Origin: Escherichia coli
GTDB taxonomy: Bacteria; Pseudomonadota; Gammaproteobacteria; Enterobacterales; Enterobacteriaceae
Reading direction: 5' to 3' (one strand)
Length of the DNA: 64,000 bases
NCBI RefSeq assembly: GCF_030013595.1
Contig: NZ_CP122768.1
Shown: positions 57,001 through 64,000 of the stretch, in pieces
How positions within the stretch are numbered: position 1 is the stretch's first letter
Layout of the letters: each line of letters starts with the position of its first letter
Program-made: the position numbers

Positions 57001-60000
57001 GGTACACCGTCGCGTACTTTACGCCATGAACGTACTAGGCAATGACTGGAACAAAGCCTATAAAAAATCTGCCCGTGTCGTTGGTGACGTAATCGGTAAA
57101 TACCATCCCCATGGTGACTCGGCGGTTTATGATACGATCGTCCGTATGGCGCAGCCATTCTCGCTGCGTTACATGCTGGTAGACGGTCAGGGTAACTTCG
57201 GTTCCATCGACGGCGACTCTGCGGCGGCAATGCGTTATACGGAAATCCGTCTGGCGAAAATTGCCCATGAACTGATGGCCGATCTCGAAAAAGAGACGGT
57301 CGATTTCGTTGATAACTATGACGGCACGGAAAAAATTCCCGACGTCATGCCAACCAAAATTCCTAACCTGCTGGTGAACGGTTCTTCCGGTATCGCCGTA
57401 GGTATGGCAACCAACATCCCGCCGCACAACCTGACGGAAGTCATCAACGGTTGTCTGGCGTATATCGATGATGAAGACATCAGCATTGAAGGGCTGATGG
57501 AACACATCCCGGGGCCGGACTTCCCGACGGCGGCAATCATTAACGGTCGTCGCGGTATTGAAGAAGCTTACCGTACCGGTCGTGGCAAGGTATATATCCG
57601 CGCCCGTGCCGAAGTGGAAGTTGACGCCAAAACCGGACGTGAAACCATTATCGTCCACGAAATTCCGTATCAGGTAAACAAAGCGCGCCTGATCGAGAAG
57701 ATTGCGGAACTGGTAAAAGAAAAACGCGTGGAAGGCATCAGCGCGCTGCGTGACGAGTCTGACAAAGACGGTATGCGCATCGTGATTGAAGTTAAACGCG
57801 ATGCGGTCGGTGAAGTTGTGCTTAACAACCTCTACTCCCAGACCCAGTTGCAGGTTTCTTTCGGTATCAACATGGTGGCATTGCATCATGGTCAGCCGAA
57901 GATCATGAACCTGAAAGACATCATCGCGGCGTTTGTTCGTCACCGCCGCGAAGTGGTGACTCGTCGTACTATTTTCGAACTGCGTAAAGCTCGCGATCGT
58001 GCTCATATCCTTGAAGCATTAGCCGTGGCACTGGCGAACATCGACCCGATCATCGAACTGATCCGTCATGCGCCGACGCCTGCAGAAGCGAAAACTGCGC
58101 TGGTTGCTAATCCGTGGCAGCTGGGCAACGTTGCCGCGATGCTCGAACGAGCGGGCGATGATGCTGCGCGTCCGGAATGGCTGGAGCCAGAGTTCGGCGT
58201 GCGTGATGGTCTGTACTACCTGACCGAACAGCAAGCTCAGGCGATTCTGGATCTGCGTTTGCAGAAACTGACCGGCCTTGAGCATGAAAAACTGCTCGAC
58301 GAATACAAAGAGCTGCTGGATCAGATCGCAGAACTGCTGCGTATTCTTGGCAGTGCCGATCGTCTGATGGAAGTGATCCGCGAAGAGCTGGAACTGGTTC
58401 GTGAACAGTTCGGTGACAAACGTCGTACTGAAATTACTGCCAACAGCGCCGACATCAACCTGGAAGATCTGATCACCCAGGAAGATGTGGTTGTGACGCT
58501 CTCTCACCAGGGCTACGTGAAGTATCAGCCGCTTTCTGAATACGAAGCGCAGCGTCGTGGCGGGAAAGGTAAATCTGCCGCACGTATTAAAGAAGAAGAC
58601 TTTATTGACCGACTGCTGGTGGCGAACACCCACGACCATATTCTGTGCTTCTCCAGCCGTGGTCGCGTCTATTCGATGAAAGTCTATCAGTTGCCGGAAG
58701 CCACTCGTGGCGCGCGTGGTCGTCCGATCGTCAACCTGCTGCCGCTGGAGCAGGACGAACGTATCACTGCGATCCTGCCGGTGACCGAGTTTGAAGAAGG
58801 CGTGAAAGTCTTCATGGCGACCGCTAACGGTACCGTGAAGAAAACTGTCCTCACCGAATTCAACCGTCTGCGTACCGCCGGTAAAGTGGCGATCAAACTG
58901 GTTGACGGCGATGAGCTGATCGGCGTTGACCTGACCAGCGGCGAAGACGAAGTAATGCTGTTCTCCGCTGAAGGTAAAGTGGTGCGCTTTAAAGAGTCTT
59001 CTGTCCGTGCGATGGGCTGCAACACCACCGGTGTTCGTGGTATTCGTTTAGGCGAAGGCGATAAAGTCGTCTCTCTGATCGTGCCTCGTGGCGATGGCGC
59101 AATCCTCACCGCAACGCAGAACGGTTATGGTAAACGTACCGCAGTGGCGGAATACCCGACTAAGTCGCGTGCGACGAAAGGGGTTATCTCCATCAAGGTT
59201 ACCGAACGTAACGGTTTAGTGGTTGGCGCGGTGCAGGTAGATGACTGCGACCAGATCATGATGATCACCGATGCCGGTACGCTGGTACGTACTCGCGTTT
59301 CGGAAATCAGCATCGTGGGCCGTAACACCCAGGGCGTGATCCTCATCCGTACTGCGGAAGATGAAAACGTAGTGGGTCTGCAACGTGTTGCTGAACCGGT
59401 TGACGAGGAAGATCTGGATACCATCGACGGCAGTGCCGCGGAAGGGGACGATGAAATCGCTCCGGAAGTGGACGTTGACGACGAGCCAGAAGAAGAATAA
59501 TTTTACTTCTTCATGCCAAAAGGGAGCTATCTCCCTTGTTTGAATTGAAAAGTCCAGGCTGCAAAGTCTGGGCTTTTGTCGTATTAGGGCGCGGTAAAGT
59601 TTTGCTGTGCTCATAAAAAATGGCTGGCTTTACACAAGGAATGTGGCAATGAGTGGTGAAAAAAAGGCGAAAGGCTGGCGGTTCTATGGTCTTGTAGGTT
59701 TGGGCGCAATAGTACTGCTTTCCGCTGGCGTCTGGGCGTTGCAATATGCTGGCAGTGGGCCAGAAAAAACGTTGTCGCCGCTGGTGGTGCACAACAATCT
59801 GCAAATCGATCTCAATGAGCCGGACCTCTTTCTCGACAGCGACTCTCTGAGCCAGCTTCCCAAAGACCTCCTTACCATTCCGTTTCTCCACGATGTTCTG
59901 AGTGAAGATTTCGTTTTCTATTATCAGAATCATGCCGATCGTCTGGGCATTGAAGGCAGCATTCGCCGCATTGTCTATGAACACGATCTCACGCTGAAAG

Positions 60001-63000: not shown

Positions 63001-64000
63001 GACCCGTTGCATTCATCCCCCATCGTCAGCGCCCCGGCGAAGCTTTCAGTGCTGGACGCCAACGGCAGTCTGTTGCAAACCATCAATGTCACGCTGGATG
63101 CGCGTAATGGCGGGCAGGGGAGTTTCCGCCTGCCAGAAAATGCCGTCGCCGGAGGTTATGAGTTACGCCTGGCTTACCGCAAACAGGTCTATAGCAGCAG
63201 TTTTCGCGTAGCCAACTACATCAAACCACATTTTGAGATTGGCTTAGCCCTCGACAAAAAAGATTTCAAAACTGGCGAAGCGGTCAGCGGCAAACTGCAA
63301 CTACTCTATCCGGATGGCGAACCGGTAAAAGATGCCAGCGTGCAGTTGAGTTTGCGCGCTCAGCAACTTTCGATGGTTGGTAACGATTTGCGTTATGCCG
63401 GACGTTTCCCGGTGTCGCTGGAAGGTAGCGACGCTGTTTCTGACGATAAAGGCAATGTAGCGTTAAACCTTCCCGCCGCCGATAAACCGAGCCGCTATTT
63501 ACTGACCGTCTCCGCCAGCGATGGCGCGGCATATCGTGTTACTACTACCAAAGAGATCCTCATTGAACGCGGTCTGGCGCATTACTCTCTAAGCACCTCC
63601 GCACAATACAGTAATAGCGGCGAGTCGGTTGTGTTCCGTTATGCCGCGCTGGAATCTTCAAAACAGGTTCCTGTTACGTATGAATGGTTGCGTCTCGAAG
63701 ACCGCACGAGCCATAGCGGAGAGCTACCGTCAGGCGGCAAATCCTTTACCGTCAATTTCGATAAACCTGGCAACTACAATCTGACATTACGCGATAAAGA
63801 CGGCTTAATTCTCGCCGGGTTAAGTCATGCCGTCAGCGGTAAGGGCAGCACGGCGCATACTGGTACGGTAGATATCGTGGCAGATAAAACGCTGTACCAG
63901 CCTGGCGAAACCGCGAAGATGCTGATTACCTTCCCGGAGCCAATTGATGAAGCATTATTGACGCTGGAACGCGATCGCGTTGAACAGCAGTCGCTGCTTT

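Follow-up and report, generated by a model that had tools for sequence, protein, structure and literature searches.

The stretch of Escherichia coli DNA analysed here (64,000 nucleotides, hereafter the window) ends inside yfaS, the third of three consecutive genes downstream of gyrA that a preliminary description had read as encoding a DUF2138 protein, a DUF1175 protein and an alpha-2-macroglobulin (A2M). The same description gave yfaS as split or pseudogenised in K-12, and the locus raises the question of which macroglobulin system it encodes, whether the open yfaS frame sets this strain apart, and where translation of yfaS begins.

Layout of the yfa operon and its relation to the Mag complex

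Judged from its sequence, the region belongs to the ordinary yfaA-yfaT-yfaS-yfaQ-yfaP operon of E. coli and forms its promoter-proximal part. This cluster is already known from textbook annotation and little rests on the finding as written; the modest new point is the start codon of yfaS. The following features define the locus in the window:

59520..59537, plus strand: terminator-like hairpin (7-pair stem, then a T-rich tail) 3' of gyrA, which ends at 59500; upstream operon boundary
59649..61337, plus strand: yfaA, a DUF2138 protein of 562 aa (Pfam DUF2138, E 2.7e-287; RefSeq annotation), MagB homologue
61334..61337, plus strand: ATGA stop/start overlap of yfaA and yfaT, from the sequence reading and the annotation coordinates
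61334..61957, plus strand: yfaT, 207 aa, of the DUF1175/MagC family; signal peptide, NlpC/P60-like fold (Pfam DUF1175, E 2.5e-58)
61891..64000, plus strand: yfaS, first 703 of 1534 codons, a thioester-less (type II) alpha-2-macroglobulin and MagD homologue; runs off the window
62920..63210, plus strand: MG2 macroglobulin domain, YfaS residues 344-440 (Pfam PF01835, E 3.9e-25), the only A2M-family domain inside the window

Pfam assigns DUF2138, DUF1175 and MG2 to the three products, in agreement with the identities first proposed, and the exact coordinates of yfaA and yfaT (59649-61337 and 61334-61957) bear out the ATGA overlap reported between them. Tight coupling of the genes is seen in the yfa cluster. 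The spacing between gyrA and yfaA is only 148 nt, and a promoter scan of 59300-62200, including the region upstream of yfaA, found no sigma-70 consensus promoter. YfaA has an N-terminal hydrophobic helix at about residues 13-31 (Kyte-Doolittle maximum); YfaT matches the MagC crystal structure (PDB 7bk8, E 3.4e-103) and gives a weak Pfam match to NlpC/P60, and its gene ends with the stop codon TAG at 61955-61957. Beyond the window, yfaQ and yfaP follow yfaS, as read in a near-identical E. coli genome, where Pfam finds two DUF2300 domains and SpoIID in YfaQ and DUF2135 in YfaP. As a separate observation, an IS10 element lies 4 nt upstream of arnB, a position from which it could change polymyxin susceptibility.

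The yfa genes have their counterparts in the type II system MagABCDEF of Pseudomonas aeruginosa (PA4492-PA4487), in which the homologous order DUF2138, DUF1175, A2M, DUF2300, DUF2135 is the same as in E. coli. Against a six-gene locus of Pseudomonas sp., the identities are 44% for YfaA and the protein in the MagB position, 70% for YfaT-MagC, 53% for YfaS-MagD, 54% for YfaQ-MagE and 54% for YfaP-MagF; YfaP is nearer to MagF than to MagA (40%). Observed in this analysis are the gene order and domain content, the pairing of each Yfa protein with one of MagB-F by homology, a lost thioester motif and close translational coupling. Mag and Yfa share the lack of a thioester and of a conserved lipobox, and tightly coupled genes; a Sec signal peptide, as in Mag, is predicted for YfaS. 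E. coli differs in lacking magA, the first mag gene and a paralogue of MagF, and has a five-gene operon where P. aeruginosa has six genes with magA first; this absence defines a subtype and does not exclude the locus from the type II family. The five-gene layout is common to Yersinia, a Serratia-like genome, Superficieibacter and one further relative. A second difference is in the cysteines: YfaS contains three, and MagD, as reported in PMC3735191, none.

Full-length YfaS (1534 aa, from the near-identical genome) carries MG2, A2M_BRD, A2M and bMG10 domains, all exceeding the Pfam cut-offs. Its thioester site, situated past the window end and taken from the same genome, is G1068-G-V-I-N1072, where some of the aligned Pseudomonas homologues carry GCVEQ, and no CxEQ motif occurs anywhere in the full-length protein. 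The type I macroglobulins (ECAM/YfhM of E. coli and Sa-A2M of Salmonella) share with YfaS the superfamily (MG and bait-region domains), the periplasmic location and the proposed protection of the envelope. They differ, however, in having a CLEQ thioester, a lipobox anchor and adjacency to pbpC, as given in PMC3735191 and PMC5764988, whereas YfaS reads GGVIN at the thioester site, lacks a conserved lipobox cysteine and is accompanied by four dedicated partner genes, its neighbours being yfaT and yfaQ rather than pbpC. A lipobox-like IAAC was considered as a sign that YfaS is a lipoprotein and set aside: the cysteine is not positionally conserved, the hydrophobic region continues past it and the AxA cleavage site is conserved. 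YfaS has diverged so far that, when its full length was compared with PDB sequences by phmmer, ECAM and Sa-A2M were not matched at E<0.01, and the only matches were marginal ones to complement C5 and CD109 (E 6e-5 to 2e-3). With eukaryotic alpha-2-macroglobulin, complement C3/C5 and CD109, YfaS has MG2, bait-region and A2M domains in common, and in that group bait cleavage triggers trapping; by analogy with Mag, YfaS would differ in the absence of covalent capture and of a receptor-binding function, and in being monomeric within a membrane-tethered bacterial complex.

Probable intactness of yfaS and the K-12 allele

By-eye translation had given an uninterrupted yfaS frame of about 700 codons up to the window end. 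Exact translation from 61891 to 64000 yields 703 codons with zero stops, a length that would arise by chance with a probability of about 7e-15 given the base composition of the window, and the in-frame stop that would have overturned the earlier reading is absent. In the nearest genome the frame closes 4605 nt after its start. The statement that yfaS is pseudogenised in K-12 is correct, as b4500 is flagged so, but the contrast with K-12 implied for the window does not survive comparison. K-12 yfaS occupies the same locus with the same 4605-nt length and the same start (the equivalent of ATG 61891), and it is open over the same 703 codons, differing from the window part of YfaS at 19 amino acids. 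Nor is the K-12 gene split in this region: its lesion is a single nonsense codon, TGG to TGA at codon 1368 (window-equivalent 65992-65994), about 2 kb beyond the window end. Because K-12 is equally open here, the open frame in the window is uninformative on pseudogene status, and because the lesion lies outside, a search for stops in 61891-64000 cannot separate the window strain from K-12. Over the whole gene, K-12 and the near-identical genome differ at 151 nucleotides, with 32 non-synonymous and 114 synonymous codon differences. The K-12 TGA would cut 167 residues off the YfaS C-terminus and with them the bMG10 domain (1409-1517).

An allele census of codon 1368, the one K-12 position that it covered, found TGG in 5009 of 5426 complete E. 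coli genomes (at least 92%) and TGA in 364; nearly all of the 40 TGA carriers sampled from these 364 are recognisable K-12 laboratory strains. Trp at codon 1368 is thus the species norm in E. coli, and the nearest genome also has TGG there. The window strain therefore most probably makes full-length YfaS, as the non-K-12 allele is the norm of the species; its intactness past 64000 is deduced from a genome differing at 1 of 4501 bases together with the allele frequencies. These counts also dispose of the reading in which the open frame marks the strain as unusual, its yfaS having been restored or being exceptionally intact while the gene has in general decayed in E. coli. The pseudogene status of yfaS in K-12 MG1655 and the truncated E. 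coli YfaS variants in the protein database (959, 999 and 1362 aa, mostly in one-member clusters) speak for such decay, but the sole K-12 lesion lies outside the window and the full-length cluster comprises 40,950 member sequences, so that the census at codon 1368 leads us to reject this reading, to which we give almost no credence.

The translation start of yfaS

Two start codons are annotated for E. coli yfaS. The overlap of the yfaS start with the yfaT 3' end, as originally described, stands with ATG 61891, the start in the curated K-12 record, and disappears with the GTG 61981 used by RefSeq/PGAP. The relevant features are:

61865..61900, plus strand: synonymous-site-conserved block inside yfaT, CAA CTT ATG ACA TGG AAG GAC ACC CGA TGG ATA CCC
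61891..61957, plus strand: out-of-frame overlap of yfaS and yfaT, 67 nt, encoding a 22-residue n-region
61891..62004, plus strand: predicted YfaS Sec signal peptide of 38 residues, with an n-region containing R5 and K17, an 18-residue h-region and the c-region ANA, followed by mature DDSLPSSNY
61954..61957, plus strand: relic of the ancestral ATGA junction, now ATAG (ATA is YfaS Ile22; TAG is the yfaT stop)
61981..61983, plus strand: RefSeq/PGAP yfaS start GTG, giving a 1504-aa product that begins 8 residues before AxA and has no signal peptide

The yfaT stop ends 67 nt downstream of ATG 61891, and from this ATG we infer a Sec leader for YfaS: all 17 homologues compared with the YfaS N-terminus have AxA followed by [DEG][DEG]xLPxSxY, and the E. 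coli sequence ANA followed by DD aligns with these AxA sites. Inspection by eye ruled against reading the MDTRR leader as a Tat signal: some 20 residues separate the RR from the h-region, and in E. coli the pair is QR. The conserved block holds both an SD-like GGAAGGA (61878-61884) and the ATG (61891-61893); the A of this ATG is the third base of a rare CGA codon for Arg, and its TG opens a Trp codon. In a scan of the yfaT/yfaS junction that listed 92 distinct junction sequences, mostly from Pseudomonas, ATG 61891 with an open frame is present in 88; CGA is kept in 89 (against a background of 2.7% among Arg codons) and ATA in 84 (1.5% among Ile codons), although part of the conservation of the SD-like motif and the ATG is forced by the highly conserved YfaT peptide in whose codons they fall. 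RNA folding revealed no stable structure around ATG 61891 (z -0.9, +2.1 and -0.2), and the idea of a structured RNA element at the conserved block was dropped.

Translation from GTG 61981, which would leave a 23-nt gap and no overlap and make the upstream ATG a by-product of the conserved YfaT peptide, is what RefSeq annotates in the near-identical genome and in 40,950 clustered sequences; it is also favoured by the ATG and the SD-like motif falling within the codons for the conserved W-K-D-T-R-W. The product from this codon, however, has neither n-region nor h-region, whereas the signal peptide is complete in the full-length homologue calls and MagD resides in the periplasm. In E. albertii ATG 61891 is retained and Ala stands at the position of GTG 61981, no SD precedes the GTG, and the ATG needs the rare CGA, which 89 of the 92 junctions retain over a 2.7% background. 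Moreover, the junction ATG is gone from seven of the distinct junction sequences, in which the upstream ATG persists and the A2M frame is intact. We regard the GTG start as very unlikely and GTG 61981 as probably a mis-called start.

The other alternative, termination-reinitiation at the yfaT stop from ATA (61954) or TTG (61966), takes its appeal from the relatives. An ATG at the same position, forming the ATGA junction, is found in 83 of the 92 junctions listed, and P. aeruginosa MagD is annotated from its ATGA-junction start, with a SignalP cleavage after residue 26. The upstream ATG would then be conserved for some other reason, for example a CsrA/RsmA-binding GGA pair, given that Mag expression is RsmA-controlled in P. 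aeruginosa (PMC3735191). Two GGA motifs do lie within the conserved block, and a CsrA/RsmA site there is pure speculation. On the other hand, ATA is a very poor initiation codon, and a product starting at I22 or L26 would have a short h-region and an n-region without positive charge. The 22 overlap codons, in addition, are stop-free, for which the expectation in enterobacterial loci is 9-18% and which a pure RNA-binding site would not need. Reinitiation is thus quite unlikely as the route to YfaS.

Our conclusion is that yfaS in E. coli is most probably translated from ATG 61891, 67 nt inside yfaT, as no other start yields a predicted signal peptide in register with those of all the homologues. 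Both Escherichia sequences listed (E. albertii and Escherichia sp.) and the near-identical E. coli genome have ATA at the junction; from these sequences, Escherichia has lost the usual ATGA-junction start and, where MagD starts at that junction, E. coli keeps only the start inside the upstream gene. It is about evenly balanced whether the yfaS/magD family as a whole has two conserved in-frame starts, one at the ATGA junction and the other at the ATG 67 nt inside yfaT/magC, built from rare codons (CGA, ATA, AAG) that create the SD-like GGAAGGA, with Escherichia and a few Pseudomonas lineages depending on the internal one. The n-region of the leader would in that case be overprinted on the YfaT C-terminus, possibly as an extended signal peptide pacing the export of a 165-kDa protein, and the RefSeq start would be wrong.

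A proposed periplasmic trap

The locus was called poorly characterised at the outset, which holds for E. coli, as a literature search found no published functional work or experiment on its yfa cluster or proteins, but not for the P. aeruginosa Mag complex, which has been the subject of biochemical, structural and genetic work (PMC3735191, PMC5764988, PMC12663445, PDB 7bk8). MagD is periplasmic and associates with the inner membrane (PMC3735191). It traps protease without a thioester, is anchored and stabilised by MagB, and forms 1:1 complexes with each of MagA, MagB and MagF (PMC5764988). By analogy, we propose that YfaS is exported by Sec with removal of its 38-residue signal peptide, that YfaA (MagB-like, with a single transmembrane helix) may hold and stabilise it at the inner membrane, and that YfaP (MagF-like) may bind it. 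YfaT (MagC-like, with an inactive NlpC/P60 fold) would contact peptidoglycan, while YfaQ (MagE-like, with two DUF2300 domains and a SpoIID-like domain) would be needed for processing. A cut made in the bait region by an incoming enzyme would then cause YfaS to close round that enzyme in a non-covalent trap, and the periplasm and cell wall would thereby be protected from foreign hydrolases, including peptidoglycan-targeting type VI effectors. For every functional step this scheme draws on P. aeruginosa proteins of 44-70% identity, and E. coli is without MagA, one of the three MagD partners.

The true target of type II macroglobulins is still debated (PMC12663445), and the complex might instead be a module for cell-wall surveillance or repair in which YfaT and YfaQ act on peptidoglycan and YfaS serves as scaffold rather than as a protease trap. 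The weak NlpC/P60 match in YfaT, the SpoIID match in YfaQ and the missing thioester in YfaS are consistent with such a module, and the sole reported in vivo phenotype is protection by MagD against the peptidoglycan-targeting effectors VgrG3 and Tae1, not against proteases (PMC12663445). The DUF1175/MagC family bears on both sides, being described in PMC10318531 as peptidoglycan-binding, which fits a cell-wall role, and as catalytically inactive, which does not. Against the scaffold view, MagD keeps its bait-region domain and, after bait cleavage in vitro, stably trapped TEV protease (PMC5764988), and YfaS likewise retains the A2M_BRD domain; we consider a cell-wall module unlikely, though it deserves some weight. 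The combined reading that we favour, a five-gene mag-type operon without magA, a Mag-like trap mechanism, a full-length yfaS and a start at ATG 61891, appears likely as a whole.

For the study of this system in E. coli, the K-12 result matters in that K-12 bears a nonsense allele of the central gene, so that wild strains, or K-12 with the lesion repaired, are needed to address any role of the system in the species. If the GTG start is wrong, about 41,000 clustered E. coli YfaS entries hide the signal peptide and would mislead predictions of localisation. The conserved start within the 67-nt overlap, finally, may offer a small, testable case of dual initiation and overprinting.

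The yfa cluster and its surroundings

The yfaA, yfaT and yfaS genes lie on the same strand, and yfaS continues past the window.

Genes of the yfa cluster within the window
59649-61337, + strand: yfaA, DUF2138 (Pfam E 2.7e-287)
61334-61957, + strand: yfaT, stop codon TAG at 61955-61957; DUF1175 (Pfam E 2.5e-58), with a weak NlpC/P60 match
61891-64000, + strand: yfaS, open at the window end; MG2 domain (Pfam E 3.9e-25)

The Pfam assignments agree with the gene identities proposed in the preliminary description, and the tight coupling it had described is present: yfaA and yfaT share an ATGA overlap at 61334-61337 (ORF list and sequence), and the yfaS ATG at 61891 precedes the end of the yfaT stop codon by 67 nt. 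The uninterrupted yfaS frame was borne out by exact translation, with 703 sense codons and no stop in 61891-64000, a run with a chance probability of about 7e-15 at the base composition of the window. These are real features of an operon that is already known and annotated.

The remainder of the cluster was read from the near-identical genome of the pig isolate HCP5S3_I2, in which the yfaS frame from the equivalent ATG comprises 1534 codons and is followed by yfaQ, yfaP and a convergent atoB. The junctions in this genome are tight all along the operon: yfaA and yfaT overlap by ATGA, the yfaS TAA abuts the yfaQ GTG, and yfaQ and yfaP are separated by 4 nt. A 4.5-kb stretch of the window is matched in 5398 of the 5426 complete E. 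coli genomes and is essentially identical to HCP5S3_I2, with one mismatch at 61051. Elsewhere, HCP5S3_I2 carries an IS200/IS605 tnpA between nuoN and yfbM (locus L003, 7826-8530), of which the window (about 7190-7200) has no copy; the window thus derives from a related strain that is not HCP5S3_I2 itself. In HCP5S3_I2 the annotation gives a frameshift for the deubiquitinase-like effector gene elaD (L003 10522-11744; approximately window 9180-10405), and YfaS residue 823 (locus L001, beyond the window) is Cys (PLGCNNVR), a strain-level substitution for the Arg of K-12, E. albertii and other genera. GyrA of the window (56873-59500) has the wild-type S83 and D87 at the quinolone-resistance-determining residues.

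Relative to HCP5S3_I2, the window contains an additional 1329-bp IS10/ISVsa5 element at 27195-28523 (27186-28532 with its flanks), with a 9-bp duplication of the target, GACATTGCT, on either side. The outside end of the element faces arnB, 4 nt upstream of the start codon (complement of 27188-27190), and the element separates arnBCADTEF from its native promoter and SD sequence. The insertion junction at this arnB site was sought in the 5426 complete E. coli genomes and found in none. IS10 carries an outward promoter, pOUT (reported by Simons et al. in 1983), which would point into arnBCADTEF, and an in-frame ATG within the element would lengthen ArnB by 20 aa. The insertion could change L-Ara4N modification of lipid A and polymyxin susceptibility in either direction.

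A type II macroglobulin and its proposed function

Full-length YfaS of HCP5S3_I2 contains MG2, A2M bait-region, A2M and bMG10 domains; in the same genome YfaQ has two DUF2300 domains and a SpoIID-like stretch, and YfaP is a DUF2135 protein. YfaT matches the crystal structure of P. aeruginosa MagC (PDB 7bk8) with an E value of 3.4e-103. For comparison, loci reached via homologues were taken from Pseudomonas (six genes) and Yersinia (five genes), and the E. coli and Pseudomonas Mag proteins pair one to one.

Identity of E. coli Yfa proteins to Pseudomonas Mag proteins
YfaA and MagB: 44%
YfaT and MagC: 70%
YfaS and MagD: 53%
YfaQ and MagE: 54%
YfaP and MagF: 54% (40% to MagA)

Whereas the P. aeruginosa mag operon has six genes including magA, the E. 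coli cluster has five and lacks magA, since gyrA and yfaA are only 148 nt apart. Yersinia, a Serratia-like genome, Superficieibacter and one further relative have the five-gene form as well.

The thioester position of YfaS reads GGVIN (residues 1068-1072), and no CxEQ was found anywhere in the protein. On sequence criteria YfaS is a type II, thioester-less bacterial alpha-2-macroglobulin, as the literature describes, separate from the type I protein ECAM/YfhM that E. coli also possesses. Its divergence from type I is such that a PDB sequence search with YfaS gave only marginal matches, to complement C5 and CD109. Some Pseudomonas YfaS/MagD homologues retain a GCVEQ thioester motif (database entries P0063, P0102 and P0110, the last confirmed in a six-gene mag-type operon, locus L005 7001-11620), and others have GGVEQ at this site. 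The rule that the type II operon form is thioester-less thus has exceptions, which blur the published type I/type II split.

In P. aeruginosa, MagD is periplasmic and inner-membrane-associated, binds MagA, MagB and MagF in 1:1 complexes, and can hold a trapped protease stably and non-covalently after bait-region cleavage; MagB, a single-pass membrane protein, is needed for its stability, membrane association and processing (PMC3735191, PMC5764988). PMC10318531 classes the MagC family among inactive, peptidoglycan-binding NlpC/P60 folds. A 2025 CRISPRi study showed that the mag operon shields P. aeruginosa from VgrG3 and Tae1, type VI effectors that attack peptidoglycan, by a molecular mechanism that its authors regard as unresolved (PMC12663445). 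By homology, it is proposed that YfaS would be exported by Sec and tethered to the inner membrane by YfaA, whose residues 13-31 form a hydrophobic helix; YfaP would bind YfaS, YfaT would link it to the wall, and YfaS would close on incoming hydrolases once its bait region is cleaved. Our search for experimental literature on the E. coli yfa cluster found none, which is unsurprising because K-12 carries a lesion in yfaS.

Candidate in-frame starts at the yfaT-yfaS junction

Both the ATG at 61891 and the GGAAGGA six bases 5' of it fall within codons for the conserved YfaT peptide W-K-D-T-R-W, where the Pseudomonas DNA is nearly identical. Because this peptide itself encodes both elements, we tested whether their conservation exceeds the peptide constraint. 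In each of seven loci from at least six genera, the distance from the ATG to the end of the magC stop codon is exactly 67 nt, the ATG shares the reading frame of the macroglobulin gene, and none of the 22 overlap codons is a stop. Synonymous resampling with local codon usage gave the same outcome in 0.7-3.6% of trials per locus; the product across the seven loci, 6e-14, overstates the case, the loci being non-independent.

A scan of species-representative genomes, using a pattern that put no constraint on the third base of the Arg and Lys codons, returned at least 120 matches; with three spurious ones removed, those listed yielded 92 distinct true junction sequences, dominated by Pseudomonas. 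Among these listed junctions, 88 of 92 carry the ATG and keep the frame open. The Arg residue is encoded in 89 by CGA, a codon that makes up 2.7% of the Arg codons of the macroglobulin genes at those loci, and the next Ile codon is ATA in 84 (background 1.5%). A second ATG, at an ATGA stop/start junction, is present in 83 of the 92, again fixed by a last codon that ends in A (CAA or CGA); it is this ATG that serves as the P. aeruginosa MagD start, with SignalP cleavage after residue 26. Seven distinct junctions among the matches listed have lost the junction ATG and keep the upstream one alone, including both Escherichia sequences in the scan, with ATA at window-equivalent 61954-61956, and a few Pseudomonas lineages. 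The upstream ATG is absent in the outgroups Methylobacter, HdN1 and one other (among the matches listed). No stable RNA structure was found in the conserved block, which in Pseudomonas is less structured than shuffled controls; such an unstructured block suits an initiation region. We give about an even chance to the reading that the yfaS/magD family has two conserved in-frame starts; the sample, drawn from the matches listed, is heavy in Pseudomonas, and the precursor N-terminus is predicted from sequence.

For E. coli itself the annotations disagree: RefSeq/PGAP starts yfaS at GTG 61981, giving a 1504-aa protein (cluster P0003, 40,950 sequences), whereas the curated K-12 record uses ATG 61891. 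Full-length homologues from E. albertii to Pseudomonas share a Sec-type leader that ends in AxA and leads into a conserved N-terminus of the mature protein, [DEG][DEG]xLPxSxY; a few other calls are short in the manner of PGAP (e.g. P0029 and P0031 of Superficieibacter). The GTG would begin just eight residues ahead of the cleavage site, with loss of the signal peptide, and E. albertii has Ala at its position. TTG 61966, the sole other canonical in-frame codon, lacks the charged n-region. ATG 61891, the equivalent of which is kept in E. albertii, yields a complete predicted leader; it is likely the true E. coli start, and the RefSeq call is probably an error.

The K-12 yfaS allele

The preliminary description had set the open frame against a split or pseudogenised yfaS in K-12. 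The MG1655 record does flag yfaS (b4500; 4605 nt, with the same start) as a pseudogene, but the lesion lies outside the window. On translation, K-12 yfaS proves to have just one in-frame stop, at codon 1368, where TGA replaces TGG (equivalent to window position 65992, some 2 kb beyond the window end); across 61891-64000 the two proteins differ by 19 amino acids and K-12 has no stop. As K-12 is equally open there, a search for stops in this interval, the check suggested in the preliminary description, cannot separate the strain from K-12. The truncation would delete the C-terminal bMG10 domain (residues 1409-1517).

Allele frequency was measured with 55-mer queries with the variable base placed at position 28; every 28-nt megablast seed then necessarily covers it. 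TGG was found in 5009 of the 5426 complete E. coli genomes and TGA in 364. Forty TGA carriers sampled evenly by rank are nearly all recognizable K-12 laboratory strains or derivatives, among them MG1655, BW25113, DH1, C600, MC4100, HB101, JM83 and O16:H48 isolates. In this census of the K-12 codon alone, Trp at codon 1368 is what E. coli normally has, the K-12 allele being exceptional; truncated E. coli YfaS variants are scattered in the protein database, against 40,950 member sequences in the full-length cluster. With the lesion located beyond the window and its frequency measured, the supposed contrast with K-12 dissolves, and K-12 is a natural mutant for the yfa macroglobulin system.
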